From a virus (lineage: Duplodnaviria > Caudoviricetes): a DNA stretch of 34,929 nucleotides. The notes beneath the pieces are model-generated. The model was not told where the DNA came from. It worked only from the letters and a program-made list of their open reading frames with translations, and searched no databases. Made by a program: the position numbers and the translations under genes. The DNA lies in the IMG/VR virus record IMGVR_UViG_3300029792_000004, positions 1-34,929 of that record; one strand, written 5' to 3'. Each line of letters opens with the position of its first letter. Within the stretch, counting starts at the first letter, position 1. This document shows, one piece after another, positions 1-28,033 of this stretch.

Positions 1-107
1 GTGCTGTCTTATTGACAGTACTACAGGATTATTTTGTATTTTTGCCTGGTATCCTGGACTTTTTATATTTTGATTTAATAACTTTTGTAAGTCTAGCCGC
101 CCAATAG

Positions 108-136
108 TTGCAATTAGTCAAAACTGCGTTTATAAT
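108..136 (+). promoter_or_regulatory. Host sigma70-type early promoter
   Basis: TTGCAA (108-113), 17-nt spacer, perfect TATAAT (131-136), upstream of the first early ORF, as expected for T7-like class I transcription. Confidence 0.75.
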
Positions 137-185
137 TCTTATTAGATTCTTTACAGAATCTTTCAATCCACCAGGACAATTAATC

Positions 186-350
186 ATGATCGATGCAAGA
201 ACGCAACGCTTTCTAAATGAATATTGGAAGCCAAGGATGGGAACACTTAGAAAAGACTCTAAGGGTCGTTATCTTATTCCAGGCGGAAGAGGTCTAGAAC
301 CGATGACCGATGAAATGCTTACAAGGTATTCGAGGTTTATGGGTTATTAA
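186..350 (+). CDS. Hypothetical early protein (54 aa)
   Basis: ATG at 186 preceded by AGGA. The ORF-track TTG start at 108 coincides with the promoter -35 box, so 186 is preferred. Confidence 0.65.
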   Translation: MIDARTQRFLNEYWKPRMGTLRKDSKGRYLIPGGRGLEPMTDEMLTRYSRFMGY

Positions 351-352
351 TT

Positions 353-487
353 ATGAGATTTGATTTTAAATTTATGGGATTTAATCTCTTTATTATTCTT
401 CTTTGTATGGTTCTTGGAACTTGGGGAGACTATCCACCAGGAACAGAACCAACAAGAAAAGTAAACCATTCTAAATTATTGACATGA
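353..487 (+). CDS. Small early protein with a hydrophobic segment (44 aa)
   Basis: Hand translation MRFDFKFMGFNLFIILLCMVLGTWGDYPPGTEPTRKVNHSKLLT. Starts 2 nt after the previous stop and overlaps the next ORF by ATGA at 484-487. Confidence 0.6.
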   Translation: MRFDFKFMGFNLFIILLCMVLGTWGDYPPGTEPTRKVNHSKLLT

Positions 488-873
488 CCACCACAGCAAA
501 CAAAAAAATTGAGATGTACGCCAGGATCAAAAAACATGGGGAGGATATTAAAAAGATATTCTCTCTTCCTGCTGATACTGACCCTATAAAACTATGTAAA
601 AAATTACATAAGTTCGAAAAGCAAGCCCAAGCAATACAGATGTTGCAATATAAAGGCAACTATAAAGAGGCAGCATTTAGAGAAGGGCAATTATTTGGGC
701 GTTTAATGGTATTTCTATTAAAAGACCCAGATAATAAATTTAAAATCTTTCTAAATTATGACCCTAGAGGCTACGCCCTAAAAATCCCTGATGAAATAGT
801 TAAAGAAAAAAACTTGACTATTCATCAAGATTGGGGAGAGTTCGGGATTATTGCACCCGACTTTAACGAATAG
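484..873 (+). CDS. Hypothetical early protein (129 aa)
   Basis: Coupled ORF in the early operon, with a C-terminal NYDPRGYALKI segment. No function recognised. Confidence 0.75.
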   Translation: MTTTANKKIEMYARIKKHGEDIKKIFSLPADTDPIKLCKKLHKFEKQAQAIQMLQYKGNYKEAAFREGQLFGRLMVFLLKDPDNKFKIFLNYDPRGYALKIPDEIVKEKNLTIHQDWGEFGIIAPDFNE

Positions 874-875
874 CT

Positions 876-930
876 AAATCTAACTTGGAGGCCTCCGCAC
901 TTGGTCGCCTCCCTGGTAGATTTTCTACCA
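876..930 (+). other. Intergenic stem-loop, possible RNase III-type processing site or attenuator
   Basis: AAATCTA (876-882) pairs with TAGATTT (917-923); GGAGGC (887-892) pairs with GCCTCC (907-912). An alternative hairpin TGGTAGA-TTT-TCTACCA spans 914-930. Confidence 0.5.
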
Positions 931-961
931 TTTACAACCCACCACAAAAGGAGTTTTATCC

Positions 962-1105
962 GTGGCTTATTTCACAATTACAGACGGCAACGGCACATCA
1001 GTTGACGTTGACTTAACAACTAATGATCCTGCGATGATTGCCCAGGCTTTTAAACAGTTCGAGGCAAAGCAGGAAGCAAACAAAAAAGACCAGGAGGAAA
1101 AATAA
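962..1105 (+). CDS. Hypothetical early protein (47 aa)
   Basis: GTG start after AAAGGAG RBS; MAYFTITDGNGTSVDVDLTTNDPAMIAQAFKQFEAKQEANKKDQEEK; TAATG overlap with the next ORF. Confidence 0.7.
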   Translation: MAYFTITDGNGTSVDVDLTTNDPAMIAQAFKQFEAKQEANKKDQEEK

Positions 1106-1284
1106 TGGCACTAACAAAAAAGCAAGCCTTAATTATTTTTAAGGATTTGTACAAAGATTTTCTAAAAGAAAAACGTTTTGATTATGTTGCCAAGCGTGAA
1201 GCCTGGAACAACTGGACAGATGGACTTTGCAAAGATAGGCAGATTACAAGCTGGCAGTATGACAACTGGACACAGCCATTCTAA
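1105..1284 (+). CDS. Cyanophage-type small early protein (59 aa)
   Basis: AGGAGG RBS; MALTKKQALIIFKDLYKDFLKEKRFDYVAKREAWNNWTDGLCKDRQITSWQYDNWTQPF. The AKREAWNNxTDxLCKD...QYxNW pattern resembles small cyanophage proteins (from memory, not searched). Confidence 0.75.
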   Translation: MALTKKQALIIFKDLYKDFLKEKRFDYVAKREAWNNWTDGLCKDRQITSWQYDNWTQPF

Positions 1285-1296
1285 GGAGGTTTAACA

Positions 1297-1464
1297 ATGC
1301 ACCAGGAATTAAAAGGCCGTGAGTATTACAACGGCCACATTATGAACGACTCTTTTCGAGAGTGGTTGAAGTCCTGCCCGAAGGAATACACCTGGCAGAT
1401 GAACCAGGTTACAAAGAATAAGGGAACATATACCTTTTTCTTAACTGAGGAGGAGGAAGAGTGA
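1297..1464 (+). CDS. Small early protein (55 aa) with an acidic tail
   Basis: TAAGGAGGT RBS; MHQELKGREYYNGHIMNDSFREWLKSCPKEYTWQMNQVTKNKGTYTFFLTEEEEE; GTGA overlap with the next ORF. Confidence 0.75.
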   Translation: MHQELKGREYYNGHIMNDSFREWLKSCPKEYTWQMNQVTKNKGTYTFFLTEEEEE

Positions 1465-1652
1465 AGTATCTAAACACCGAGGCGGAGCAGTTTCACACTG
1501 CTCTAGCCCTTGCCGAGGATATGCGCAGGGAGTACAGAATACAACTTGCAGTCCTGCTCATGGCCGAGCAACTTTGCGCAGAAGATGTAAAGTTGTTAGC
1601 CATGAGATTATTTAAACTTTATCAACAATTAATTAAGGAACAGAACCAATGA
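1461..1652 (+). CDS. Hypothetical helical early protein (63 aa)
   Basis: GTG start after GAGGAGGAGG; overlaps neighbours on both sides. Confidence 0.7.
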   Translation: MKYLNTEAEQFHTALALAEDMRREYRIQLAVLLMAEQLCAEDVKLLAMRLFKLYQQLIKEQNQ

Positions 1653-1858
1653 GCAAAGAAAAACTAAAGCCTTACGAGGTTATCTTTAACCAGGTAGACC
1701 CCGAAAACCCAAGCAGTCCTGTGATGACTAGCAAAATTATATACGGTGGTAATCTTACCGCTGCTCTGGTTAAGTTTCACAATGAAACACCGCTAGTAGA
1801 TATTAAAAAGGTCGAAGAGTTTAACAATAAGAAATCAGGAGCTAGATTAAAATGGTAA
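1649..1858 (+). CDS. Hypothetical protein (69 aa)
   Basis: AAGGA RBS and ATGA overlap with the upstream ORF. Confidence 0.7.
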   Translation: MSKEKLKPYEVIFNQVDPENPSSPVMTSKIIYGGNLTAALVKFHNETPLVDIKKVEEFNNKKSGARLKW

Positions 1859-2175
1859 ATTCTGACCACCAAATTTATTTATTATCTAAAAAGAAACCAA
1901 ATAAAGCACACGCCAACAATCAAGGCAACGTGCTTTATTTTTATTCTGAGCCTGGAACCTGGATAAGTTCAACTTATTCCTACATACCTCCAGATGCAAC
2001 ACACTGGATGATGTTACCAGACAGTCCTGCACCAGTAAAAACGCCAGAAGAATTACAAGACGAGGCGTTTAATGCTTGGCTAAAAGAAAAATATGTAGAT
2101 GTAGTTGTTAGAACTGCAATGTATCCAACACTAAAAGAAGTCTTTTTATTAGGAGTAAAACATGGAAGTAACTAA
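1852..2175 (+). CDS. DUF551-like protein
   Basis: ATHWMMLPDSP matches the DUF551 THWMPLPEPP signature; AGGAG RBS. Confidence 0.6.
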   Translation: MVNSDHQIYLLSKKKPNKAHANNQGNVLYFYSEPGTWISSTYSYIPPDATHWMMLPDSPAPVKTPEELQDEAFNAWLKEKYVDVVVRTAMYPTLKEVFLLGVKHGSN

Positions 2176-2359
2176 GCCTGAGAGTACAAAGATACAAACA
2201 ACTCTCAACGTAGAGGCGCATCGAAGAGTCAAAGCACTTGCCAAGGTAACAGGCAAGTCAGACAGCGAAGTCGTTAACTACATTACGCAGTCCTGGATGG
2301 TCGATAACTTTGATAAGGAGTATGACTTTTGGGCAGCGAAAATACCCGAACAGAAGTAG
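2162..2359 (+). CDS. Putative ribbon-helix-helix (CopG/Arc-like) DNA-binding protein
   Basis: KIQTTL strand, helix VEAHRRVKALAKVTG, then KSDSEVVNYI, which fits the RHH strand-helix-G-x-S-helix pattern. AGGAG RBS. Confidence 0.55.
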   Translation: MEVTKPESTKIQTTLNVEAHRRVKALAKVTGKSDSEVVNYITQSWMVDNFDKEYDFWAAKIPEQK

Positions 2360-4710
2360 ACCAGGACAATCTTGAAAGAGAAATGCTAACCCTAGGCTGC
2401 GATAGGGTTAGAGTCCTGGGCAACCGACAAAAGAAAAACAAGATGGAGTCTCTCTCTAAATGGGGGGAGGCTCTATCTGCGCATGGATGTAACGAAATAG
2501 TCCTGCACTTGCGAGCCATTCGTAAAAAGATAGAGAAGGGAGCAGCTGGTAAAAACTTTGCTAGTCTTACGCCACTTACATATCTACCAGCACAGCAAGT
2601 AGCTGCGTGCGGAGTAAGAACCGTGATAGATAGTCTCAGTGCTAACCCTACGCTGCACTCTGTTGCCACTGATATTGCAGATAAATTATGGATAGAGACT
2701 ATGCTGGATAGGGCAAGTCTCCTAGAATTAAAAAACTTTAGGCGTGGTAGAAGTAGAAAAGCACATAAGATGGCTTACATCAGGAGGATGGAGGCGACTG
2801 ATAACTGGCAACCGAAGGAGCGCATGGCATCAGGAGTCCTGCTCATAGAACTGATAGAAAAATACACTGGATTAATAGAGATAAAGCTAGACAATACAGT
2901 CAGGCCAGCAAGAAGAATAGTCCTGCCTACTGAACAATGCCTGGCATGGGTGAGCAATGTAAAGGAGCAGCAAGAATTAATGACTCCTAACTATTTGCCT
3001 ATGTATATACCGCCTCGACCCTGGACTAGCACGCTCGATGGTGGCTATAGAAATAAAGACTTGCCGTTAACTCTTATGAAGAGTAACTCTGAGCTAGTTG
3101 CAGAGAAAACTACAGGCAAAGAGCAGTTTATCCAGGCTGCAAACATACATCAGTCTGTGCCTTGGAAGGTAAATGCCTGGATGTATGAACAGATAGAGTA
3201 CGCATACGATAGAAATATGGAGGTGGGTTGCTTACTACCTAGAGATGGCTGGCCTATCGACCCATACCCTAAACATTTAGAGGAGAATGATCCAGGAATA
3301 CAGAGATGGAGGTATAAAACCAGGGCAATACATGAGAAGAACGACAAGACTAGAGGTGCAAGGATCGCTCAGGCTAAAACACTATGGGTAGCACGCAGAT
3401 TTATAGAAGAACAAGAGATATATTTTCCTATGAGCCTGGATTTTAGAGGCAGATATTACTATCGACCACCTTATCTAAACCCGCAAGGTAATGATGTAGC
3501 CAGGTCGCTACTACTATTTGCTAATGGTACAAAGATAGATAGCAAGGAGGCAGAGAATTGGTTACGCATACATGGTGCTAACTTATATGGCCTAGGCAAG
3601 TCTGATTGGCAGACCAGGATAGATTGGACAGAAGAAAAGCTAAGACTAATCTTAGATAGTGGCATCGACCCCTGGACTAACGCAGAATTTTGGATGCGAG
3701 CAGATAAACCTTGGTCATTCTTAGCATTTTGTCGTTCCTTCTATCTATACAGGACAGAACCAGATTACAAATGCAATTTACCTGTGATGTTGGACTGCAC
3801 TTGCTCTGGAATACAGCATTATGCGTCACTTTTGCGGTCAAAAGAGATGGGAATACTGGTTAATCTTGAGAATAATGAGACACCAAGGGATATATACACG
3901 GAAGTTATCACTAAAGTTAACCAAAAACTGCGTGCAACAGAGGATCATAGGGCTAAAAAGTGGTTGATGTTGCAACCTGATAGGTCACTGGCTAAACCTT
4001 GCGTGATGACTACGCCATACTCAGCTACAAACACAGCCTTCTACTACTTTGCATACGATTGGGCTACAAAAAGAGCCAGGGATTTGTTTGGTCATGGCAG
4101 TTGGACTACAAAAAAAGGGTCAATGTCAACGATGCACTACATGGCACGGCTGTTACACAAGGAAGCAACGTCACTAATCGAGCCAGCGGTAGAAGCAATG
4201 AAGTGGTTTAAGTTTGTTGGCCGTATTGCTGGTAAAAATAACGTGGCACTTGAATGGGTTACGCCTTCTGGCTTACCAGTACACCAGGAGTACAGCGATA
4301 CAAGATTATCCAGGATAAGAATGAAATATTTATCTGATATTTATTTAGATATACGAACACAAGTAGATAAACCTGGTTTAGATACTAAGAGAATGAGCTA
4401 TGCTTTATCTGCAAACGTATTGCATAGCTTCGATAGCAGCCACATGGCAGCTACAACTGTGGATGCAATGAAATACATACAAAATATAGGAGGCATACAC
4501 GACTGCTTTACCACCACTCCAGCAGAGATGTCAAAGTTAAGAGACTCAGTACGAATAACTTTTGCAGATATGTATGCACATGATTGGTTAACAGATATAA
4601 AGGTAAAGCTAACATCACAAATACCAGGCACGAAGGGTATGCCTAGTGAGCCACAGCACGGAACATTAGACCCTAACATCACACGTTACTCAAATTATTT
4701 CATCACATGA
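2329..4710 (+). CDS. gp1: T7-like single-subunit DNA-dependent RNA polymerase
   Basis: LDFRGRYY, PQGND, motif A LDCTCSGIQHY, motif B RSLAKPCVMTTPY, NVLHSFDSSH, motif C IHDCF. TTG start 8 nt after AAGGAG. Confidence 0.97.
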   Translation: MGSENTRTEVDQDNLEREMLTLGCDRVRVLGNRQKKNKMESLSKWGEALSAHGCNEIVLHLRAIRKKIEKGAAGKNFASLTPLTYLPAQQVAACGVRTVIDSLSANPTLHSVATDIADKLWIETMLDRASLLELKNFRRGRSRKAHKMAYIRRMEATDNWQPKERMASGVLLIELIEKYTGLIEIKLDNTVRPARRIVLPTEQCLAWVSNVKEQQELMTPNYLPMYIPPRPWTSTLDGGYRNKDLPLTLMKSNSELVAEKTTGKEQFIQAANIHQSVPWKVNAWMYEQIEYAYDRNMEVGCLLPRDGWPIDPYPKHLEENDPGIQRWRYKTRAIHEKNDKTRGARIAQAKTLWVARRFIEEQEIYFPMSLDFRGRYYYRPPYLNPQGNDVARSLLLFANGTKIDSKEAENWLRIHGANLYGLGKSDWQTRIDWTEEKLRLILDSGIDPWTNAEFWMRADKPWSFLAFCRSFYLYRTEPDYKCNLPVMLDCTCSGIQHYASLLRSKEMGILVNLENNETPRDIYTEVITKVNQKLRATEDHRAKKWLMLQPDRSLAKPCVMTTPYSATNTAFYYFAYDWATKRARDLFGHGSWTTKKGSMSTMHYMARLLHKEATSLIEPAVEAMKWFKFVGRIAGKNNVALEWVTPSGLPVHQEYSDTRLSRIRMKYLSDIYLDIRTQVDKPGLDTKRMSYALSANVLHSFDSSHMAATTVDAMKYIQNIGGIHDCFTTTPAEMSKLRDSVRITFADMYAHDWLTDIKVKLTSQIPGTKGMPSEPQHGTLDPNITRYSNYFIT

Positions 4711-5312
4711 AATCCGAAACGCTTATCACAAAGACACCTGTATGTAGGTTTCAATACACCTGGTTGGTAGAACCAGATACTAAGTACGATCCATTATGGA
4801 AAGTTACTTGCCTAATAGATCCTAACGATGCACTTGAGTTAGAGAAACAATTAGATGGCTACCTAGAAAATTGGAAGAAGCAATTAAAGACAGCTAATCC
4901 TGACAAGAAATTTAAGTTAGCACCTAAACCCTGGAGCTACGCAACTGTAGATGATGGCGATGGTAGTAGGAATTATTTTGTAGTAAAAACTAAGATGCCT
5001 ACTGGTGGTATCAATAGGCTTACAGGAGAGCAATGGCACATGACCCCACCTGTTTTATTTAATTCTGAAAATAAAATTATGACAGAAGAAGAAAAGCAAA
5101 AGGTAAACAAGTGCGGTATTGGTACTCTTGGTCAAGTTAACTTGCGTGTCATGGGTTATGACGGCAACTTTGGGGTAGGTGTTAAGATCCAACCACAAGC
5201 AGTCAAGATACACAAGCACGTTGAGTATGTAAAATCTGCACAGGATTATGGTTTCGATGACACAGCGCAAACGTCAACAACGAGCAGCTTCGACAACGAA
5301 GAGGAGTTCTAA
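4707..5312 (+). CDS. gp2.5: ssDNA-binding protein (T7 gp2.5-like)
   Basis: Position after RNAP, WLVEPDTKY segment, GVKIQPQAVKI, and an acidic C-terminus ending in Phe (DNEEEF). Confidence 0.88.
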   Translation: MKSETLITKTPVCRFQYTWLVEPDTKYDPLWKVTCLIDPNDALELEKQLDGYLENWKKQLKTANPDKKFKLAPKPWSYATVDDGDGSRNYFVVKTKMPTGGINRLTGEQWHMTPPVLFNSENKIMTEEEKQKVNKCGIGTLGQVNLRVMGYDGNFGVGVKIQPQAVKIHKHVEYVKSAQDYGFDDTAQTSTTSSFDNEEEF

Positions 5313-5676
5313 CTATCGAAGCAAGTTTGAAGCATCGGTTGCAAAGAACCTGGTCGACAACAAAATTAAATTTTCCTATGAAACCATCAACATTGATTAC
5401 ATCATCTCTAGCAGTTACTGCCCTGACATCATCTTTGATAATGGAATCATTTGTGAAATTAAAGGCCTATTCCGAAAGGAGGAGCGCAGAAAACATCTTG
5501 CGATCAAGGCGCAACATCCCACATTAGACATTCGTTTTGTTTTTCAAAACAGCAAAACGAAACTAACAAAAGCTAAAGGAAGCCTAACCTACGCTAAATG
5601 GTGCGAGAGGCATGGCTTCCTCTACGCTGATAAGATTATCCCACCACATTGGTATCATGGATCAGAAAAAACTTGA
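5248..5676 (+). CDS. gp3: Endonuclease I / Holliday junction resolvase (T7 gp3-like)
   Basis: YRSKFE, YCPDI, EIKG, RRKHLAIKAQHPTLDIRFVF, TYAKWCERHGF. Confidence 0.95.
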   Translation: MVSMTQRKRQQRAASTTKRSSNYRSKFEASVAKNLVDNKIKFSYETINIDYIISSSYCPDIIFDNGIICEIKGLFRKEERRKHLAIKAQHPTLDIRFVFQNSKTKLTKAKGSLTYAKWCERHGFLYADKIIPPHWYHGSEKT

Positions 5677-6040
5677 AAAACTACAGAAATTATTTGCATT
5701 AGCAAGTAGAAATCCTAATGAAAATGAAGCAAGTGTTGCTGCGCTAAAGTTTATCTCTGCGCTAAACAAAGATGCTTTGCATATAACAATCTCAGAACAG
5801 CCACAACCTACAGGAGAGCAGATTAACAAGGCATTGCAAGAACATTATCAAAGAGGATTCCAGGAGGGAAGAGCTAGTGCATATGACGATGGCTATGCTG
5901 CTGGATACAACAAAGGCATACACGAAAATATGCAACAGGAGACTGTAAGAGAAGAGCAAATTTATCAGCCACATTCAACAGCAGCAAGCACTTTGTATGT
6001 TCATAACACTAGCGGTCACACCATTACAGTTGGCTTGTAA
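5657..6040 (+). CDS. DUF2786-like N-terminal domain protein
   Basis: EKLQKLFALASRNPNENEASVAALK fits the DUF2786 pattern, followed by a GxxxG-repeat helix (GFQEGRASAYDDGYAAGYNKG). ATG 5657 preferred over 5612. Confidence 0.6.
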   Translation: MDQKKLEKLQKLFALASRNPNENEASVAALKFISALNKDALHITISEQPQPTGEQINKALQEHYQRGFQEGRASAYDDGYAAGYNKGIHENMQQETVREEQIYQPHSTAASTLYVHNTSGHTITVGL

Positions 6041-7656
6041 TGCAGAGGAGTAAGTACATAAGCAAAGAGCCGTGTCCTGAGTGTCAGTCGAAAGATAACG
6101 TAGCTGTCTATGACGATGGACATAAGTATTGTTTTGGCTGCGGTTGGCAGTTCCAACCACCTAAAGATAAACCTATTAAGTTTGAGAAACCATTTAAGAT
6201 GAAGGTCACACCGCTACTACCATTCGTTACACCAAAGGCTTTACCTAAACGTGGAATCACTAAAGAGACTTGCGAACTATATGACTATGGGTATGCAGAA
6301 TACAACAACCAGGTAGTCCAGGTGGCTACATACCACGACAAGATAGGCAAGCCAGTTGCGCAGCACCTTCGATACAAAGACAAGAGATTTGGATGGGTCG
6401 GAGACACTAGCAATATGCAACTTTGGGGTCAAAAAATTTGGAGACAAAACCACGGAACAGAAACCAAAGTCTTTGCTGTAATTACAGAGGGCGAAGTTGA
6501 TTGCCTTACTATCTCACAGATCCAGGGCAACCGCTTCCCTGTAGTAAGTTTGCCAAACGGTTGTCAATCAGCTAACAAGTACATAGCTGCAAACTTAGAA
6601 TGGTTATCTCAATTCAATCGTATTGTAATTTGTTTTGACTCAGACAAGCCTGGCATGGATGCTGCCGAGAAAGCAGTTGAAATCCTACCTCCTGGCAAAG
6701 CAGCAATATGTAGACTGCCAAGAAAAGACGCTAACGAAATGCTCCTCGCAGGAGAAGGGGAAGAACTTAAGGATCTATTATTCAAGGCGATCCCTGCTAG
6801 ACCAGATGGAATACATAACGCCTATGATTTATGGGAACAGCTGATAAAGAAAGACGAGACAGGTGTATGTAGTTATCCATTTCCTATCCTTAACAAAATG
6901 TGCCAGGGGTTTCGCAAGCAAGCACTCGTAACTATTTGCGCAGGAACAGGTTCGGGGAAGAGCCTACTTTGTAGGGAAATGGCTTATCATTTTCTTAACA
7001 ATGGATTAAAGGTGGGGTGGATTGGTCTCGAAGAGAGCAGTAAGAGAAGTATGCAAGGCATATTATCTATTGCACTAAATAAACCACTACATTTAGAGCA
7101 AGACAAGATAGATGAAAAAGAATTACGCCAGGCATTTGATTATATATTTGCTGGCAATAGGTTCTTACTCCTGGAACACTTCGGTTCATTAGATCCAGAC
7201 AGGTTATTAGAACAGATAACGTACATGGCAACAGGAGAAAACTGTGACGTTATCTTCTTAGATCACATAAGTATTGTTGTATCAGGACTGACAGTAGGAG
7301 ATGAAAGAAAACAAATAGATGTATGCGTAACCAAGCTAAGACAGGTAGTAGAAAAGACAGGCGTAGGTTTAGTTATGGTCAGTCACTTGCGTAGGACTGA
7401 TGGTAAACCAGCTGAAGATGGAGGCGACATTAATTTAGCTAGTTTGAGAGGCAGCCAAAGCATAGCTCAGTTAAGCGACTTGGTTGTATGTGGTATTAGG
7501 TCACAAACTGACGAAGAAAAGAACAACGAGCTACAGCTAAAAGTGTTAAAGAATAGACACACAGGTTGCCTGGGCATGGCAGATAAACTTACATATACAG
7601 AAACAACAGGTCGCCTTATGGTGGCTGCATCAGATTTTTTTGGGGAAAAATTATGA
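6040..7656 (+). CDS. gp4: DNA primase-helicase (T7 gp4-like)
   Basis: Zn finger CPEC...CFGC, TOPRIM TEGEVD/FDSD, Walker A GTGSGKS, IFLDHISI, LRGSQSIAQLSD, VLKNRHTG. Confidence 0.97.
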   Translation: MQRSKYISKEPCPECQSKDNVAVYDDGHKYCFGCGWQFQPPKDKPIKFEKPFKMKVTPLLPFVTPKALPKRGITKETCELYDYGYAEYNNQVVQVATYHDKIGKPVAQHLRYKDKRFGWVGDTSNMQLWGQKIWRQNHGTETKVFAVITEGEVDCLTISQIQGNRFPVVSLPNGCQSANKYIAANLEWLSQFNRIVICFDSDKPGMDAAEKAVEILPPGKAAICRLPRKDANEMLLAGEGEELKDLLFKAIPARPDGIHNAYDLWEQLIKKDETGVCSYPFPILNKMCQGFRKQALVTICAGTGSGKSLLCREMAYHFLNNGLKVGWIGLEESSKRSMQGILSIALNKPLHLEQDKIDEKELRQAFDYIFAGNRFLLLEHFGSLDPDRLLEQITYMATGENCDVIFLDHISIVVSGLTVGDERKQIDVCVTKLRQVVEKTGVGLVMVSHLRRTDGKPAEDGGDINLASLRGSQSIAQLSDLVVCGIRSQTDEEKNNELQLKVLKNRHTGCLGMADKLTYTETTGRLMVAASDFFGEKL

Positions 7657-8396
7657 CACTATTGATAGATGCTGATTGGCTAATCTATTCTTCCTGCTGC
7701 GCTTGCGAAGTAGACTTCCGTGCTGACGATGGTACACACTTGTTGCACAGCACAGAGAAAGACGTAATGGATCTTGTTGACATAAGAGTAGAAGGGTACA
7801 AGAAATTAGCTGACGATGATAGTGGAGTCATCATGTGTTTTACTCAGTACCCTACGTTTCGACATGGAATATACCAGGACTATAAAGCTAACCGCATAGG
7901 TCAACGGCATCCACTAGCACTAAAGGATGTAAGGCAGATAACAAAAGAGACATATCGCTCTGTTGCGTTTGAAGGACTAGAGGGCGATGACGTTATGGCA
8001 TTGCTTGCTACTAATGGTCAGCATGAGAATCCTGTTATTGTTTCTCCTGACAAAGATATGAGAGGTGTACCTTGCACGCTACTGGCAAAGGATGACCTGG
8101 AGTTAATTACAAGAAAGAAAGCAGATAGATTCTGGATGCAACAGATATTGTCAGGAGATCATACAGATAACATCGAAGGACTTGTAGGAGTTGGACCAAA
8201 AACAGCAGAGAAAATGTTAGAGGATGCGACTACAGTAGAAGAGATGTGGGATAAAGTAGTTAAGCACTATGAAAAGAAAAACAAAACCTATGCTGATGCT
8301 GTTATGACGGCACAGCTAACACGCATCTTACGAGATGGAGAGTACAATTACACTACAGGAGAGGTACAACTATGGCAGCCATTGACCCTACAATAG
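7653..8396 (+). CDS. gp6: 5'-3' exonuclease (T7 gp6-like)
   Basis: LLIDAD, YKANR, LEGDD, SPDKD, GDHTDNIEGLVGVGPKTA. Confidence 0.95.
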   Translation: MTLLIDADWLIYSSCCACEVDFRADDGTHLLHSTEKDVMDLVDIRVEGYKKLADDDSGVIMCFTQYPTFRHGIYQDYKANRIGQRHPLALKDVRQITKETYRSVAFEGLEGDDVMALLATNGQHENPVIVSPDKDMRGVPCTLLAKDDLELITRKKADRFWMQQILSGDHTDNIEGLVGVGPKTAEKMLEDATTVEEMWDKVVKHYEKKNKTYADAVMTAQLTRILRDGEYNYTTGEVQLWQPLTLQ

Positions 8397-20269: not shown

Positions 20270-23200
20270 ATGCCTTTTGAAGAATATAAAGACGAAAACG
20301 GAGAAACTAAAACTCGTTACGTTGCTCCAGAAGGAACAATATCTAAAGAACCAAAGAAAGGTTTCCAGGAGGGTGGAGATTTTGATTTAGGTGCAAGTAT
20401 TGGCAGAACATTTGGACAAGCTGGTAGAGACTTTGTACAAAATTTATATGATTCTGTTTACGATGAAATAGCTACATACGATCCAACAGGCCCAACAGAA
20501 ACTTTTAAAAGTTCAAGAACTATAGATGATATACGAAATGAATATGGTACAGATTTATCTCCTAGAGAATTTAATAAAATATTCAACGAAAGAAGAGAAG
20601 AATTATTCCCTTCGGATCAGCCAGGAGTAATAGGTAAAGCATTTGATATGCAACCTACTTCCTTTGATAGCCCAGATGCAGACATACCCTTTTTAGGTAA
20701 ACCATTTGACAATGTTGCACAGAACAATGCAGAACACATGATTGGTGGGTTGCTGGCTTCGATAGGTCAATTTGCATTAGTTGCTAAAGGATTAAAAGCT
20801 AAAGGTGTCAAAGTTCCGCAAATACCTTTATTTAAAGGAAGAATGAAAACTAAACTTGCAAGCAAAGCACCTGGAGTAAAAGGTTTTTTTGATAGAACAC
20901 AAGGTAGATTTATACGAGGTGCGCAAGAAGGTTGGCTTCCTGGAGCAATAAATGACTTTGCGTTAGAAGATCCTTGGGATGGCAATATGGTTAACTTGCT
21001 TGCTAGTGGTGTGCCTGATGGAAAATTAAAAAATTTATTAAACGAGTTTGCAGTCACAGAAGATGATACGTTAGCAGAAGCAAGATTAAAGAATGGAGTA
21101 GTAGGTACACTTATAGCTGGTCCATTATTAGGAGGTTCACTAGAGCAACTAGGAGGCGGTAAAAGAGAAACCTTAATAATGCTTGACGCTATTGCAGATT
21201 ATTTTACTAAGGGTGCAAAGGTTGCTAAGAAAGGAAATGCAGCGAGAGGCATAAAAAATCCTTTAAAAGAACTTACAGATCAAGAGACAGCAGAAGTAGG
21301 AATTGTAAAACTTACAGGTAGAGAGAAAAAGTCAGCATCAGAACAAGCTGTAGAGATTATCCAGGAGCAAGATAAAATACAAAAAGCAAAAGATTTTCCA
21401 GGTACTAGTGGACAGCAACTTAATACAGATGGCATAGATCAAAGCGAAATAGAATTTAACGATTCATTAAATGAATTAGAGCAAGCTAGAAAAAATTTAG
21501 AAGTAACAGCATCAAGGTCAAAGTTTATAGCTGAGTCGACAGGCGGTATAGATGAAACAAAAAGTTTAGATTTGCAACCTGTACCTAGCTCAGAACTTGC
21601 AACTATTGGAGTAAATGAAATTGCTGTAAATCCACAAAGGTTTCAATTTAAACAAGCAGGGCAAACAAAAACTGGACAAAGCGGATCTTTAGGCGCAATA
21701 ACAAAATATAATACTGATCTGGCTGGTGTTGTAAGTGTATGGAGAGATCCAGCTGACGGCAAAACTTATGTTGTTAATGGGCATAACAGGTTAGCAGCAG
21801 CAAAACGACATCAAATACCAACTGTAAATGTAAGGTATCTTGATGCTCCAGATGCAGCAACTGCAAGAGTAAAAGGTGCTATGCAAAATATTGCAGAAGG
21901 TAATGGCACAGGTGTCGATGCAGCAAAGATAATTAGAGAGACAAAGATGGGCGTAGAGGAAATGGTGCAGCAAGGTATCAGCCCTAGCGGTGTAGTTATG
22001 AAGAAAGCTATACCTTTGTCGAAGCTACCAGCAGGACTATTTGACCAGGTTGCTACAGGAAAACTTACAGAAGATATGGGTGTAGCAATAGGAAGTAGCA
22101 ATGCACCAGATCAAGTAATGTTTGACCTGGCAAAAGCTGCAAAGAAGAAGGGTTGGAGTGCAGCTAAGACAGCAGAAGCTGGATTAATAGCAAGACAGTC
22201 AAGTGTATTTGAAGTAAAAGATCCTAACGCTTTACCTCTTCTTGGCTATGACACACTTATTACATCTAACTTTGAGAAGCAACTTAATGTACGCATTGCA
22301 ATTAGGCAGCAGTTAAGGTCAGAAATAAACGCATTAGGAGTTGCTGCAAATACAAAGAAAGCAGGAACATTAACTGACGCAGGAAATGTTATTGATGTTG
22401 ATGCAAGTAAAGCTGCAAGAGATGAATCGCTCCAGGGAGAAATTGTATTTAACAGACTTGTTGGAACAGAAGGTAAGTTAAGTGATTTAGTTAATGAATT
22501 AATTGCGCAAGTTAAAGGAAATAAAAAAGCTGCTACTGTCGTACAAGCAAACATACAAAAAATAAAATCAGTACTAAAAGAGGAAGCAACACTTGCAACA
22601 ACTAAAAAACAAAACGTACAAAGAGGAAGAGAGAAATTATCAGAAAAAGAATTAGATAATATTTACGGAACAGATCGAGACCAGGGCGACTTAGATCGTA
22701 GGCAGGAAGCTTTGCAGCGAGATGAAGAATTTGCAAGAACAAGCGAAAAAGAACGTATGGATAATTTGGAAATATATAGAGTTGGTTCTGTGTTTGACGA
22801 ATCGGATCAATATTTAGCAACAAGAAAAGCAGAACTAGAAGCGCAAGGCTATCCGTTAACAAAACGGCAAATATCAAATATTAAAAACAAAGCAATAAAA
22901 GGAACTGGTATTAAGCCAGATTTTCCAAATCAAGCTGTTGAGCAAGATTACTATATAAAAACGTACAGAGAGTATGTAAAAAAAGATATAGAGCTACATT
23001 CAACAGAATTTTTAGAAAGCATATATAAAAATGGAGAAGAGATAGGAGATGAAAAACTAGCTCAAGCACAAAAAGAATTAGAGGACATATACGGCAAAGC
23101 TCTTACTGCGCAAAATAATTCAAGGCGTATGGTAGAAAACTTAGAATACAATTTTATTATTGAAGAACAAAAACGTAGAGCAGGAGTAACTAACAACCCT

Positions 23201-26200
23201 ACAGAAATAAATAAAAAGCCAGATACATTTAATGTTAAACAAACAACAGAGACAGTAGCTACAGGCACATCAAACATTGTTAGAGAGCCAGAACTACCTA
23301 AAAGACTGAAAGGAGCTAAGTCCAGGTATCGTCAGATGCGTGTATCTTTTGATAATGACATTGATAAAGCTGTTTATATAGTTACTAAACGACCTAACAG
23401 AAGAACAATCGTAGAGTTTGAAGGTGGTAGTAAAAATAATCCAGACTACATTAAATTTTTAATGGATGATAATGGCTTTACAGAGCAGGATATTATTCGC
23501 ATAGCTGATAGTTTGTATGATGATTTTAAAGCTAACTACAGAGAAGGCGTAGAGTATGTAGCTCAAGCTGGTTACAAGTCACTAGGTTACAAGTCAGGAC
23601 AGCTAAGTTTAGATCCACTTAACGGAATAAACCCAATACATAAGAGATCCTACGGAACACTAGGTAATGACTATACAGGCATGAATATGCTGAACTATAG
23701 AGAGAAGTTTGAGCTATTAGAAGAAATACAAAGAATGGCTGGCAAGGATGTAAACGTACAGTTTGTAGCAGAGCTAGAAGGCACGCTTACTGCTAAACAG
23801 GCAGCTGACTACGGCTTAACAGAAGGCGATACATATAGCGCAGCTGGAGAATTTATTGCTGGTACAAATCCAGCAGATGATTTAATAATGATTTCTATGT
23901 TTAGTAAAGGTGGATATAGAGGTTTTGGTAAGTTACTAAGAACTGCTTTCCACGAATCATTCCATAGAATACAAAAACGATTATTAAGCAAAGCAGATCA
24001 AAAAGCTCTTATAGCAGGAGAAAAGGAGATAAGAGAGTTAGCTGCTAAGACTATGCCAGAGTTTAGAGACAGCATCCTTGATGGCACATTAGGTAGACAG
24101 GAGGTAGAAGCTATAGCATTTAGTGATTGGTATATGCGTAATACTGATTATCCAAAGGCAACTTGGGCAGAACCATTCAAGAAAATTGCACAGATTATTG
24201 AACGCACAGGTAACTTCTTAAAAGGTAGAGGCTATCAAACTTGGGATGATGTATTTGAAAGATCAATGCGTGGAGAGACAGCAGAACAGGCTGTAGCAAG
24301 TGACCTTATTGCACCAGCCACACAACTTGCTATTGATCCTCCAGATGCAGATAAACTTGCTAACGAAATAAAGAAAAATATAGAAGCAATAAATAACGGA
24401 GATATGAGCATAGAAGAAGCTCTTAAAAATCAGGCAGCAGATGAACCTAGAAGGTTAATTAGTCGCAGCGGTAAAACACAATATGTAGAGACACCTAGCG
24501 AACAATTAGCTGCGTCTTACAAAGCATTTAACGATTTAATATATAACCTTACATTTGACAGAGCAGAAGCTACAGGCATAGCAAATCTTGATAAAGCTAT
24601 GTTGTTTAATCAAGCTGTAGATAAGTTAAGAATGGATGGTGGAGATTCAGATGCAATAATATCAAGCGTAGAAAGAGCATTAAAAGGAGATCCAAGATCA
24701 GCAGATGATTTAATTGCTATAGCTACATTGCAACTGCAAACAGATATTGTAAGAAACAAGACAGGAATACAAAGCCAGGCATACTTATCTGCTCCTGAGT
24801 CGGAGAAAGGTGTTGAATTGCAAAGATTAAAAGCAATGCTAGGAGAGCAACTAAAACTAGATGTTGCGTATATGAGTGTAATGAGAAAGACAGGTCAAAG
24901 ATTAAGTATGGGTAAGCTAATGTTTAGGGCAGATGATGTAGATTTATCTGATTTACCTAGCGAAGTAACTCTTAGAAAAGGTACATCTAACGAAGCTGGT
25001 GCAAAAGTATTACAAGATGGCTTTGACGTTACCCAGGAGACAGGTGCTATGGGTCAAGCTGTTTACTTTACTACTGACGAAAACAGTATAAAAGTAATGG
25101 ATGGTTACGATAACGCAGAAATATATGGCGATTTAATTAACGACATAAAAATATTAGACCTATCTGCAATGAATAAAAGGTTAACTGATCTAGTAACTGA
25201 CTTAGGATTAGGCAAGGTAAAGAAAACTAAGAACGGATTAGAGTTAAATCCTGCACAAATAGAAGGTATAAAAGCGTACTTAGCAGATAGAGGTTACGCA
25301 GGAATAAGGTACGAACCTAGAGATACTGGTCGCCCTAATGCACCAGCTGACGAAATAGCTATCTTTGACAATAATTCTGCTAACAGAATAGTAGGATCTG
25401 ACGCAAGCGTACCTCCTAGCGCAACTCCAGAAGCACCAAAAAGAACTTTATTAGAGCAAGCTATTGCAAAATCAGAGGATTTGTTAAACGATAAGTTAGA
25501 TCCGAAGTTACTAGATGCTATAGAAAGCGGAGAGCTAACGCAGGAAGCAATAGAACTTGGAGATGTCATGGTAGCTATCTCTAACTATTCGCAAAAAAAT
25601 AGAGGATTCAACAAGCACATATCCGATTTAATAGAACAAACTCCTAAAGGTGGACTGACACAAAGAAGGTTACTTAACTTCTATCGAGGAGCAATATTAC
25701 TGTCAGGAGAAACTACATGGAAAATGATGATAGGTGGTTTATATAGAGCAGCTACATTGCCTGTCATACAAACTATGGGAGGCTTTACCAGAGGCGTAGG
25801 TCAATCTATAACAGGAAATAAAGCAGAGGCATATAAGAGTTTTAGAAGAGCAAGATTAGGAGCAATGATATATGGACAGTATTACCAAAACTTAGGTAAC
25901 GCTTTCCGTTTAATGGGCGCAACATTAATGGAAAACGAAACTTTTGGTAACTTAGGTGTAGATCAGATGCAGTTAAGAACTAATAGCAGATTTAATCCTA
26001 CTGACCAACTTAGCCTGGGAAGCGATGAAGTACAGGTAAGCAAGAAAAGTGATATATGGCACGCAGATCCAAACAATAAAAACTTTTTTGCTAATGCTGC
26101 ATTAAGAGTTTTAAGTGCTGTACCTAAAGCTACAGGTCGTTTAGCTGGTGGTGTAGATACATTTATGAGTTCATTAGTTGGACCAAGTATGGAATATGTC

Positions 26201-28033
26201 AGATTCTTAGACCAGGAGTTATATCATGCAGAGACAGTATTAGGTATGCGCCCTGGATCTGATGAAGCATTTAATTATGCAAGTGATAGGGCTGTTGAGT
26301 TAGTTAAGGCAGAGATGGTAGATGTAACACTTGCTAATGGTAAGAAAATAGAAAATGGTGCATTAACTGGACAAAATGCTAGATATATTATGGATTGGGT
26401 TAACTTTACTGACTCACTAGATGTTGTACCAGCACCAAGAACATACGACTATGGCGTAAGAAAAGCTAGAGAAAGTGGTATTACAGATCCATTAGATGTA
26501 CATAACTTTGCAAATAAATATGTAAATGAAGGTAGCAATATATTTAACCAGGGTGGTGTAGCTGGTGGCATGGCAAAAGCATCGCAAGCTGTAGGACTTG
26601 TACCAAAAGCATTAGGAAACGTAGTAGAAAACTATCCTGCATTTGGTCTTATATATCCACTACCTAGAGGACCAATAAATATTATTAAAGCAAGTGCAAG
26701 AGCATTTCCTATTACTGCGCCATTTGTAGATACATTTTGGAGAGATATAACTTCAGAGGATTTATTTACAAGAGATAGAGCTATAGGAGAAATGGCATTA
26801 GGCACTACAACACTAGCTGGTGGTATAGCATTGCTATCTACAGGATTGGTTGAGTTTACTGGCTTTAGGTCTACTAACTATAGGAACAGAGAAGTTGGAC
26901 CAGAAAGTGTAGAAAGAGGTAGAGAACCTATGAGTATAAGATTTAAGAATCCATTTAGTGATAGCGAAGAATGGACACCCTGGTACTCACTACAAACCTT
27001 TGATACATTAAGCAATATTTTTGGTGCAATAGGTGAATATGTAGAAGTTGGCAACAGCCTTACAGAAGAAGAAAAAGAAGTAGAAAGCTCTATAGTTGCA
27101 ATGAAGATTGCACACGTTGCAAGAGCATTAGGTATGGGTCAATTTAGCAAACAGATACTATCAAGTATTACTGAACTCTTTGACGTTGTAGCTGGATTTG
27201 ATGAAGATGCTGCAAGAAGAATGAAGAAAGGTAAAACTGGTGCATTTAGTAGATACATAGAAAGAAAACTATCATCATTGCTAGTACCAGCTGCTATTAG
27301 AAAAATTAATATAGGAGAAGCAAGAAGAGATATTGTAGCTAGTGAACTACCTTTTCCATTTAATGTTGTATCAAATACCGCACAAAGAATACAATTACAA
27401 ATTCCTGGAGGAAGAGAAGGGCTGCCACCTGTATTACATAACTACTCAGGAGATCCTATAGACGACAGAGATTACGCTGGTACAGGTGCAATACCAGAAG
27501 ATATGCCTTGGCTAAAGTTCTTTTACAAGATGCTTACACCTACTTCTGCATTTCCTAGTCGTACAAAATCTACACATCCTGTCGATGTAGAACTAAGCAA
27601 ACTATATGGTAAAGGCTCTAACTACAAGCCCTGGAATGATAATATTTTTAATTTGCCAGGCAAAGTTCTTAACAGGGAAGAATTAAATAGACTGATAACT
27701 ATAGGTACAAAAGAAATTAAAAACGAAGCTGGTAATACTTTATGGGAAGAACTTACAGCATTAGTCACAATAGATTCAGTTTATGCCTCTCTGCCGTATG
27801 ATGTTAGCAGCGATGTTGAAAACCCCAGAATGACGATGATTAAAAATGTCGTTGCTGAGTTTAAAGAAAAAGCAAAAATTAAATTTTTAGAAGAAAGGCC
27901 AGATATAAACAGCCTTATAGAAGAAAGAGATCAAAAGATCATTGATAAACAATACACAAGAGATAGACTAAATAGTATGAACGACAAACAAAGTCGCAAT
28001 GATTCTAACCAGTTCCTAGCTCAACTTAACTAA
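20270..28033 (+). CDS. gp16: Giant internal virion (ejection) protein D, gp16-like, with ParB-like, zincin metallopeptidase and ADP-ribosyltransferase-like domains
   Basis: Lies between gp15 and the tail fibre; 2587 aa. Motifs YVVNGHNRLAAA (about aa 500-511), HESFH (aa 1228-1232) with downstream EVEAIAF, and LRKGT...GQAVYFT...GYAGIRY...DEIAIFD (about aa 1568-1700). Confidence 0.8.
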   Translation: MPFEEYKDENGETKTRYVAPEGTISKEPKKGFQEGGDFDLGASIGRTFGQAGRDFVQNLYDSVYDEIATYDPTGPTETFKSSRTIDDIRNEYGTDLSPREFNKIFNERREELFPSDQPGVIGKAFDMQPTSFDSPDADIPFLGKPFDNVAQNNAEHMIGGLLASIGQFALVAKGLKAKGVKVPQIPLFKGRMKTKLASKAPGVKGFFDRTQGRFIRGAQEGWLPGAINDFALEDPWDGNMVNLLASGVPDGKLKNLLNEFAVTEDDTLAEARLKNGVVGTLIAGPLLGGSLEQLGGGKRETLIMLDAIADYFTKGAKVAKKGNAARGIKNPLKELTDQETAEVGIVKLTGREKKSASEQAVEIIQEQDKIQKAKDFPGTSGQQLNTDGIDQSEIEFNDSLNELEQARKNLEVTASRSKFIAESTGGIDETKSLDLQPVPSSELATIGVNEIAVNPQRFQFKQAGQTKTGQSGSLGAITKYNTDLAGVVSVWRDPADGKTYVVNGHNRLAAAKRHQIPTVNVRYLDAPDAATARVKGAMQNIAEGNGTGVDAAKIIRETKMGVEEMVQQGISPSGVVMKKAIPLSKLPAGLFDQVATGKLTEDMGVAIGSSNAPDQVMFDLAKAAKKKGWSAAKTAEAGLIARQSSVFEVKDPNALPLLGYDTLITSNFEKQLNVRIAIRQQLRSEINALGVAANTKKAGTLTDAGNVIDVDASKAARDESLQGEIVFNRLVGTEGKLSDLVNELIAQVKGNKKAATVVQANIQKIKSVLKEEATLATTKKQNVQRGREKLSEKELDNIYGTDRDQGDLDRRQEALQRDEEFARTSEKERMDNLEIYRVGSVFDESDQYLATRKAELEAQGYPLTKRQISNIKNKAIKGTGIKPDFPNQAVEQDYYIKTYREYVKKDIELHSTEFLESIYKNGEEIGDEKLAQAQKELEDIYGKALTAQNNSRRMVENLEYNFIIEEQKRRAGVTNNPTEINKKPDTFNVKQTTETVATGTSNIVREPELPKRLKGAKSRYRQMRVSFDNDIDKAVYIVTKRPNRRTIVEFEGGSKNNPDYIKFLMDDNGFTEQDIIRIADSLYDDFKANYREGVEYVAQAGYKSLGYKSGQLSLDPLNGINPIHKRSYGTLGNDYTGMNMLNYREKFELLEEIQRMAGKDVNVQFVAELEGTLTAKQAADYGLTEGDTYSAAGEFIAGTNPADDLIMISMFSKGGYRGFGKLLRTAFHESFHRIQKRLLSKADQKALIAGEKEIRELAAKTMPEFRDSILDGTLGRQEVEAIAFSDWYMRNTDYPKATWAEPFKKIAQIIERTGNFLKGRGYQTWDDVFERSMRGETAEQAVASDLIAPATQLAIDPPDADKLANEIKKNIEAINNGDMSIEEALKNQAADEPRRLISRSGKTQYVETPSEQLAASYKAFNDLIYNLTFDRAEATGIANLDKAMLFNQAVDKLRMDGGDSDAIISSVERALKGDPRSADDLIAIATLQLQTDIVRNKTGIQSQAYLSAPESEKGVELQRLKAMLGEQLKLDVAYMSVMRKTGQRLSMGKLMFRADDVDLSDLPSEVTLRKGTSNEAGAKVLQDGFDVTQETGAMGQAVYFTTDENSIKVMDGYDNAEIYGDLINDIKILDLSAMNKRLTDLVTDLGLGKVKKTKNGLELNPAQIEGIKAYLADRGYAGIRYEPRDTGRPNAPADEIAIFDNNSANRIVGSDASVPPSATPEAPKRTLLEQAIAKSEDLLNDKLDPKLLDAIESGELTQEAIELGDVMVAISNYSQKNRGFNKHISDLIEQTPKGGLTQRRLLNFYRGAILLSGETTWKMMIGGLYRAATLPVIQTMGGFTRGVGQSITGNKAEAYKSFRRARLGAMIYGQYYQNLGNAFRLMGATLMENETFGNLGVDQMQLRTNSRFNPTDQLSLGSDEVQVSKKSDIWHADPNNKNFFANAALRVLSAVPKATGRLAGGVDTFMSSLVGPSMEYVRFLDQELYHAETVLGMRPGSDEAFNYASDRAVELVKAEMVDVTLANGKKIENGALTGQNARYIMDWVNFTDSLDVVPAPRTYDYGVRKARESGITDPLDVHNFANKYVNEGSNIFNQGGVAGGMAKASQAVGLVPKALGNVVENYPAFGLIYPLPRGPINIIKASARAFPITAPFVDTFWRDITSEDLFTRDRAIGEMALGTTTLAGGIALLSTGLVEFTGFRSTNYRNREVGPESVERGREPMSIRFKNPFSDSEEWTPWYSLQTFDTLSNIFGAIGEYVEVGNSLTEEEKEVESSIVAMKIAHVARALGMGQFSKQILSSITELFDVVAGFDEDAARRMKKGKTGAFSRYIERKLSSLLVPAAIRKINIGEARRDIVASELPFPFNVVSNTAQRIQLQIPGGREGLPPVLHNYSGDPIDDRDYAGTGAIPEDMPWLKFFYKMLTPTSAFPSRTKSTHPVDVELSKLYGKGSNYKPWNDNIFNLPGKVLNREELNRLITIGTKEIKNEAGNTLWEELTALVTIDSVYASLPYDVSSDVENPRMTMIKNVVAEFKEKAKIKFLEERPDINSLIEERDQKIIDKQYTRDRLNSMNDKQSRNDSNQFLAQLN

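Follow-up and report, generated by a model that had tools for sequence, protein, structure and literature searches.

T7 carries short heptamer repeats (CCTAAAG) in and beside its terminal repeat, and the known arrays bound by ribbon-helix-helix (RHH) proteins, those of ParG, CopG and the omega heptads, consist of adjacent boxes in promoters or centromeres that occur in both orientations. The class II signal of T7 RNA polymerase (RNAP) is described in passages of 10.1101/2021.01.11.426313, 10.64898/2026.02.12.705533 and PMC9624206 as a 7-mer of strict specificity that lies on the non-template strand, follows a flank rule similar to the one found below, and is active within coding DNA and stronger in tandem. 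The nearest published pattern that we found is that of terminal co-oriented Chi clusters in phages (passages of PMC12315714); PMC12455610, in the parts available, concerns avoidance, which is the opposite. Here, we analysed an array of AGTCCTG copies in the early region of a 34,929-nucleotide stretch of a Caudoviricetes genome (positions 1 to 34,929 of IMG/VR record IMGVR_UViG_3300029792_000004; hereafter the window). This array is a real, strongly selected, one-strand cis-signal inside coding DNA, and it belongs to none of the families that we tested.

The window derives from an MPP-C / P-SCSP1-type T7-like podovirus of Prochlorococcus without DNA polymerase. Its RNAP is 98–99% and its major capsid protein 100% identical to those of 17 P-SCSP1 isolates (99.4% for the RNAP of P-SCSP1n), which were grown on Prochlorococcus MED4; this corresponds to MPP-C of Cai et al. 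(passages of PMC9860041). Scanning of 32 window ORFs (open reading frames) identified RNAP, SSB, endonuclease, primase-helicase, exonuclease and the T7 structural set, and no DNA polymerase family, in agreement with the first-pass annotation of this DNA. DNA polymerase was likewise found in none of the 21 records other than P-SSP7 (P-SCSP2 and 20 viral contigs, several of which are fragments). Neither the terminase genes nor the first part of the end region described below is in the window; a 99%-identical contig has both. In public data, the stretch is partly present in 20 of the 23 runs listed, always as assembled contigs, and no ends were seen in the four that were compared.

The first-pass annotation had listed nine exact copies of AGTCCTG on the + strand, in six ORFs and all three codon phases, and four on the − strand (at 7283, 7875, 17518 and 22032). 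Our recount returned the same positions (Table 1) and no further + copy in the window. The word is indeed rare by chance, at about one copy per 20 kb per strand in dinucleotide shuffles rather than the one per 30 kb first estimated; none of 100 shuffles reached 13 copies, with a mean of 3.4 on both strands. Under a codon-preserving null, 20,000 runs gave a mean of 0.3 copies for positions 1297–2931 and did not exceed 4, compared with the nine observed. AGTCCTG is the top local word cluster of the genome (p ~1e-14), and the best chance cluster in 35 control stretches reached 1e-9.9. The synonymous-codon null and the use of all three phases thus uphold the earlier statement that protein sequence does not explain the copies, and a protein-level or codon explanation is rejected by this null together with the synonymous sites and overridden residues described below.

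The word extends one base further than first noted: position 8 is A in none of 17 independent site clusters and C in 11, giving the extended form AGTCCTGC. Other flank positions hold no clear information in these clusters, with no T-run and no excess of T at +7 to +31. Single-mismatch variants are absent from the + strand of positions 1–3500, where 3.7 are expected, and nine relatives have 0–7 of them in the array zone. Across sites, we found no helical phasing, no fixed distance to start codons (65–572 nt) and no shared RNA fold. No longer or tandem repeat among the 20 largest repeat families holds the word, and Rfam gave no matches.

Relatives of the window phage retain the array. All 19 distinct relatives with RNAP identities of 89–99% and at least 900 nt of upstream sequence contain 9–11 copies, with AGTCCTG as the top word, and P-SCSP1u has nine. 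Retention of the word at synonymous positions, which the first-pass annotation had proposed as a check, was borne out: sites 2023, 2289 and 2499 are invariant in all aligned loci, and those at 2412 (17/40) and 1715 (11/17) turn over. The aligned loci behind these per-site counts are partly redundant; for scale, 142 of 241 four-fold codons of the RNAP gene vary among ten loci. Exchanged early genes and alleles bring their own copies. At two RNAP positions, the word displaces the usual residue: it encodes Leu both at 2919, where Lys or Arg is found in 30 of 34 outgroup rows and Leu in none, and at 2835, where 30 of 34 have Phe. At these positions, the DNA signal therefore outranks the protein. 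The 17 independent + site positions all lie within the array, compared with one − position; outside it, there are 0 + and 11 − clusters. In one P-SCSP1-type contig (L016), a DNA methyltransferase-like gene that resembles P-SSP7 gene 2 is inserted within the array, and the sole reverse copy inside any array is found in this contig.

No + copy was found outside the array in the rest of the window, in P-SCSP1u or in two relatives with 90% RNAP identity. The codon null predicts 1.4 + and 2.0 − copies in the window remainder, and 115,690 nt outside the array in four related genomes hold 0 + and 13 − copies. These counts are no more than suggestive of an avoidance of the word on later sense strands.

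The array lies near one genome end. Throughout the family, we found an end region, or hub, with a promoter-looking element TGTCCAC(T/A)TA(G/T) (hub element TGTCCACTATAG), a conserved AAAAATCTGAGGGG block and a hairpin of a C-run and a G-run, which in this clade is followed by 4–5 GTCC-core repeats on the same strand as the array. One of these repeats, the terminal word AGTCCTTG, is invariant in 14 of 14 hubs and differs by one base from the array word. The end region is probably the unannotated terminal repeat of P-SCSP1, and the P-SCSP1 GenBank records would for this reason be permuted. P-SSP7 has a sequenced terminal repeat of 206 bp (passages of PMC3350473), and its genome starts 27 nt before the hairpin. 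By analogy, we infer that the left end of the window phage lies ~113 nt before window position 1, which would place the array ~1.5–3.0 kb from the end. In 14 genomes, the first site lies 1325–1606 nt from this inferred end, the first three or more early genes are free of sites, and about one site per ORF follows beyond this leader. The position of the first site has a standard deviation of 97 relative to the end and of 199 relative to the RNAP start. The earlier claim of a polar array near the first-entering end therefore holds as regards selection, polarity and proximity to the left end, with the end itself placed by the P-SSP7 analogy.

Between the site-free genes and the array, the window contains an intergenic element (874–961) with an invariant 20-mer (903–922) and a perfect short hairpin, which is possibly a processing site or a promoter. 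The leader word AACCCACCAC (935–950; also in L262, L266, L288 and L270), is often followed by (A)AGGAG, and many relatives have 4–5 copies of it ahead of early genes (p to 2e-11); a similar word, TCACCANC, is found in Syn5.

Table 1. Coordinates of the array, its sites and associated features (window positions unless a record is named).
Feature	Position	Strand	Details
Array of nine co-oriented AGTCCTG(not-A)	1370..2925	+	spacing 84–336 bp; ~1 per small ORF; four in first 600 nt of RNAP gene
Site 1	1370..1376	+	ORF 1297–1464, K-S-C; kept in 27/29 aligned loci
Site 2	1550..1556	+	ORF 1461–1652, A-V-L; kept in 29/30
Site 3	1715..1721	+	ORF 1649–1858, S-P; kept in 11/17; other alleles of the gene have the word elsewhere
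Site 4	2023..2029	+	ORF 1852–2175, DUF551-like, S-P; kept in 34/34
Site 5	2289..2295	+	within RHH gene, Q-S-W; kept in 36/36
Site 6	2412..2418	+	RNAP, R-V-L; kept in 17/40, nearest subgroup only
Site 7	2499..2505	+	RNAP, I-V-L; kept in 41/41
Site 8	2835..2841	+	RNAP, G-V-L; Phe in 30/34 outgroup rows; kept in 36/39
Site 9	2919..2925	+	RNAP, I-V-L; Lys/Arg in 30/34 outgroup rows, Leu in none; kept in 36/39
Reverse copy	7875..7881	−	exonuclease gene; kept in 24/24 aligned loci, which may be codon conservation; membership uncertain
T7-like single-subunit RNAP gene	2329..4710	+	proposed reader; PHROG 414, E 8e-178
RHH protein	2162..2359	+	rival reader; strand residues K-x-Q-x-T
ParB-like domain of gp16	21560..22300	+	weaker rival reader; TIGR00180, E 0.022, below cut-off
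Candidate sigma70-like early promoter	108..136	+	10/12 consensus matches, 5' of array; 7 such found vs 11.5 in shuffles
End region	L022 36700–37140, directly left of window position 1		promoter-like element, AAAAATCTGAGGGG block, hairpin, co-oriented GTCC repeats
CANGGAC(G/A/T) array	L024 (P-SSP7) 2072–3655; L463 (P-GSP1) ~4166–6231; 31 MPP-B loci	sense	tandem 8-bp repeats before GGTTCGANTCC hairpin

Tentatively, we favour the phage RNAP as the reader of the word; neither this enzyme nor the RNA was among the candidates of the first-pass annotation. The AGTCCTG copies may be sequence-read pause or termination sites for this enzyme, class II-like, that limit read-through into the early region. 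Host RNA polymerase would transcribe the early region first, ignoring the word. Once made, the phage RNAP would initiate on concatemers or joined ends, from the promoter-like element that precedes the terminal repeat on its left, and proceed into the early region, where a row of individually weak sites would halt it before the RNAP message is complete. Both self-amplification and late re-expression of early genes would thereby be limited; the opposite strand could carry the word without effect, and sense copies in middle and late genes would do harm.

Several observations are consistent with the phage RNAP in this role. The polarity of the clusters matches transcription both inside and outside the array, and in the 17 clusters the signal is an exact 7-mer with a not-one-base flank that needs no hairpin. 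The element TGTCCAC(T/A)TA(G/T) faces the early region just left of the terminal-repeat hairpin, and shares its GTCC core and strand with the word. The RNAP branch of the clade is long (0.39 in a quick tree), which fits an altered specificity, and the lack of any trace of the word in the host (see below) fits a phage-specific reader. Polarity, exactness, coding location, multiplicity and invisibility to host RNA polymerase require no extra assumption if the phage RNAP is the reader. The array thus resembles the T7 class II terminator (ATCTGTT; concatemer junction, PTH, VSV) in being an exact 7-mer in one orientation, without hairpin and with a not-one-base flank. It is however not a member of this class and at most works like one: the word itself is AGTCCTG, T7 has a single natural junction site as opposed to a ten-site array in early genes, and T7 class II release needs a T-rich run after the word, which the array sites lack. 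The co-oriented repeats at the T7 genome end are a further parallel, as this clade has its post-hairpin GTCC repeats on the array strand; unlike the array, which lies 1.3–3.4 kb inside and in ORFs, the T7 repeats are close-packed and non-coding.

A number of findings weigh against reading by the phage RNAP. Sister clades share the layout of hub, RHH gene and RNAP gene without a detectable array (45 loci and 12 loci, see below). The canonical ATCTGTT does not occur on the + strand of either the window or P-SCSP1u, where 2.2 and 3.4 copies are expected, so this signal may already serve the RNAP and make another word unnecessary; two relatives have 1 and 3 + strand copies of it. The sites have no T-run on their 3' side, and the array begins 1.3–1.6 kb from the end, away from the junction. 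We found no further copy of the promoter-like element ahead of middle or late genes, which leaves its role a matter of resemblance. Nor is the absence of sense copies from later genes particular to AGTCCTG: 141 of 2376 words with a similar − count are also absent from the + strand, as are 66 of 300 CpG-free permutations (6–22% for matched control words), GTCC is also scarce in a relative without the array, and in four loci the leftward terL gene has a sense copy. Finally, P-SSP7-like phages have a near-complementary word on the same functional strand, which a pause model does not explain. A related proposal, that the copies are promoters of the phage RNAP, is unsupported, as they hold no information beyond base 8, have no purine start and do not occur before late genes.

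The RHH protein encoded within the array is the next candidate. Its dimers would bind the word, and the dispersed sites would act as a roadblock, by looping or as a centromere-like complex that silences the early operon, including the RHH gene itself and the RNAP gene; we consider this rather unlikely. The RHH gene, which starts at 2162, sits at the centre of the array (midpoint 2147) and lies directly upstream of the RNAP gene through most of the family. The predicted fold is RHH (predicted local distance difference test score of 85), 8 of 25 homologues match RHH_1, and the PDB matches listed are almost all RHH proteins, none at E <= 0.001; the best of these is ParG (template modelling score 0.60, E 0.14). 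All members of the clade keep the strand residues K-x-Q-x-T, despite protein identities down to 57%. Among 25 aligned homologues, the only other K-x-Q-x-T protein is that of L106, whose locus has eight ATTCCT where 0.9 are expected; searching for more RHH loci with K-x-Q-x-T brought up none beyond those already known. The residues occur together with a site of the form A(G/T)TCCT in both the clade and L106, a modest argument for the RHH protein, although the L106 signal is borderline (5 of 35 control stretches score equally in the blind scan) and L262 has five ATTCCT beside a K-x-Q-x-V protein. AG-TC-CT is also a near-palindrome, yet a symmetric dimer gives no reason for the 17:1 polarity.

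RHH proteins usually require adjacent boxes. The array differs from RHH operators and centromeres in this respect, despite an RHH gene in its middle and ParG as the nearest fold match: its sites are single, dispersed, coding and polar, lie 84–336 bp apart and 65–572 nt from start codons without helical phasing, and no adjacent or phased boxes overlap a promoter. Most sister clades moreover retain the RHH gene without the array, and the P-SSP7-type array described below is independent of it, with a mean of 7.0 sites in 24 loci without the gene and 5.9 in 7 loci with it. Of the earlier suggestion that the RHH protein reads operator or iteron sites, the genuine RHH fold stands and keeps the protein a live rival; sister RHH genes without an array and the one-strand rule do not fit it. 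In P-SSP7, the small ORF PSSP7_010 (L024 ~4207–4353, annotated as hypothetical) also reads as an RHH protein, and it is present in 7 of 31 MPP-B loci.

Alternatively, the word could be read in RNA. T4 RegB acts on GGAG, and AGUCCUG might similarly be a cut or binding site through which early messages are removed once a phage or host factor appears, which is unlikely. The word lies on the sense strand only; in 14 genomes, the ORFs from that at 1297 up to the RHH gene have about one copy each, and the word is kept on allele exchange. No site lies in the first early genes, where the factor could be encoded, and the suggestive absence from later sense strands would agree with such a site. However, the clade-specific proteins match no nuclease or RNA-binding family, and searching with the first early protein yielded no usable match. 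The sites share no fold, the word shows no preference for unpaired positions (0.40 compared with 0.49 in controls), and Rfam gave no match. CsrA was found in neither host nor phage (0 of 11 records over the cut-off), and an antisense CsrA/Rsm array (CAGGAC) is rejected on this count and on the pairing of GGA (unpaired 0.31 vs 0.31).

Quite unlikely, in our view, is a reading by the ejected gp15 and gp16, for which the array would be a polar brake or ratchet: the first 1.3 kb would enter freely, the genome would then stall in the array and transcription would pull in the rest. The distances given above speak for it, namely the site-free leader of at least 1325 nt from the inferred left end in all 14 genomes and the smaller spread of the first site relative to this end than to the RNAP start. 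T7 gp16 has been proposed to clamp DNA at ~850 bp, in line with such a brake; against it, T7 gp16-C binds DNA without sequence preference (both from passages of PMC8954989). The divergence of gp16 between clades is fast, as a clade-specific word would lead one to expect, but gp16 and gp15 are only 71% and 59% identical in a relative with the identical word. The L106 array begins ~370 nt from its own genome end, and the leaders of P-SSP7-like phages are variable (516–2072 nt).

The gp16 of the window phage (2587 aa, 20270–28033; HExxH motif AFHESFH), which we liken to a polyvalent injected protein, contains the ParB-like domain that the first-pass annotation had proposed to be loaded at the sites. 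Gene content does not predict such loading: five of the seven records with the domain, among 22, show no array. Furthermore, parS is palindromic and ~16 bp long, unlike the non-palindromic 7-bp array word, and the presence of the domain does not track that of the sites.

A replication start, in which the phage primase-helicase would load or prime at the sites on the displaced top strand and serve a replisome built on the host polymerase, is improbable. The family lacks a DNA polymerase, and a fork moving rightward would have its sites on the top strand, as here. GTC, the T7 primase triplet, is part of the word, and the D-G-H residues of the zinc domain are retained; the conserved bases lie 3' of GTC, however, outside the primer-templating part. 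All sister clades share the primase residues and the lack of a polymerase and have no array. As the 20 viral contigs and P-SCSP2 are all without polymerase, this lack does not predict the array. Priming sites would be expected genome-wide and are here missing elsewhere, and the array has no AT-rich unwinding element. The origin recruiting the host replisome that had been suggested finds no specific support.

Least probable by far is that AGTCCTG is the Chi of the host, or another polar host word, that protects or recombines the left end. Both host genomes searched encode RecC, the orientation suits RecBCD entering from the left, and in one host genome, that of MIT 9302, the 8-mer GCAGGACT is found 15:4 on leading and lagging strands. 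The Chi clusters of the lambdoid phages LLS and MD8 (passages of PMC12315714) are likewise short polar words near one end and within genes; unlike AGTCCTG, which is neither enriched nor skewed in the host, they are host words read by RecBCD. The 41 Prochlorococcus genomes contain 71–107 copies each compared with 83–117 of the reversed word, and MIT 9302 (1.6 of 1.74 Mb, origin set at dnaN) has 43 leading and 51 lagging copies with 44 expected, so the strand skew that the first-pass annotation had looked to is not seen for the 7-mer in this genome. Counted by hand, the 8-mer stands at 14:10, 13:10 and 14:13 in three further genomes, and the four-genome sum of 56:37 is driven by one. Three other phages of the same host have no AGTCCTG array (P-SCSP2 has no copy, P-SSP7 three scattered ones and a 16-kb stretch of P-GSP1 two), and Chi would leave the first 1.3 kb, including the early promoter, unprotected. 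Because the host genomes show neither excess nor skew, Chi-like end protection is unsupported, and a host Chi or KOPS-like word is rejected within the scope of these 41 genomes and the one 1.6-Mb skew test; passages of PMC5101192 name no Chi for Prochlorococcus.

The AGTCCTG array itself is absent from 45 loci with RNAP identities of 46–71% and from 12 more with about 52–61% identity to L106. Only borderline words were found in sister clades, and equivalent arrays are rejected there because these words lie within the blind-scan null. L106 and L242 have eight ATTCCT in the corresponding stretch, where 0.9 are expected, but their word ATTCCTNG scored 2e-8, with control stretches reaching 1e-7.7 in 5 of 35, and the L244/L292/L293 word ATTNTCCA scored 2e-9, with control stretches reaching 1e-8.7 in 2 of 35; the latter was not counted because it is also on the other strand and overlaps start codons. 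Both borderline arrays, ATTCCT(T/A)G in L106 and GATTNTCCA in L244/L292/L293, have a copy at the RNAP codons that match site 2499.

P-SSP7-like phages show a strong signal of their own. CANGGAC occurs on the sense strand of their early region in 275 copies, compared with 4 reverse copies, in 31 distinct loci and 224 distinct contexts, in all phases and as intergenic tandem 8-mers. P-GSP1 has nine CANGGACG in 2.1 kb (p 1e-13), and the array is absent in Syn5 and P-SSP10. In 60 of the 224 contexts, an ATG follows 3–12 nt downstream, and part of CANGGAC may for that reason be a ribosome-binding sequence. This array is independent of the RHH gene and of CsrA. Its complement, GTCCNTG, is the P-SCSP1 terminal word and differs by one base from the array word, with the opposite strand relative to transcription. 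These words might form a general, undescribed layer of polar control words in early coding DNA of T7-like Prochlorococcus phages (AGTCCTG in P-SCSP1, CANGGAC(G) in P-SSP7 and P-GSP1), possibly derived from the terminal-repeat word and read by a directional phage machine, the RNAP or the ejection complex, that would meter entry or the early-late switch. We regard this as a possibility rather than an expectation. The early region of P-SSP7-like phages also contains the words TTATCCACA and TATCCAC (L024 left end near 640; L122), which we take to be DnaA-box-like from the consensus as we know it.

Elsewhere in the window, an additional 142-aa gene with a DUF2786 domain lies between the endonuclease and primase-helicase genes (5612–6040), without a counterpart in P-SCSP1u and the other records tested. 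The middle and late ORFs (28 kb of coding sequence) contain neither CGCG nor CCGG, for which synonymous shuffles predict 18.5 and 15.5 copies; the same absence in two relatives resembles restriction-site avoidance. Long invariant runs at 4639–4664 (RNAP) and 6415–6458 (primase), each ending in CACGGAAC, are candidate phage promoters or RNA elements.

In the literature searched, we found no description of the array words, including in the main text of the MPP-C genome paper (PMC9860041, 0 matches to the word or to 'motif') and the parts available of the P-SCSP1u structure paper (PMC10575957); a single occurrence of the letters was found in PMC5490813. MPP-C phages are reported to be abundant and cosmopolitan, and the timing of their transcription and their replication without a polymerase are presented as an open question in passages of PMC9860041. 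The array provides a strong, mapped cis-signal in a cultured phage–host pair, selected hard enough to change residues of the RNAP. As CANGGAC is found in P-SSP7, the best-studied marine podovirus, the question can be approached in existing systems, and each candidate reader predicts something different. If the phage RNAP reads the word, this would be the second natural word of the class II type and the first array used for self-control, useful for the engineering of single-subunit polymerases. If the ejection complex reads it, the array would bear on what halts the entry of T7-like genomes.

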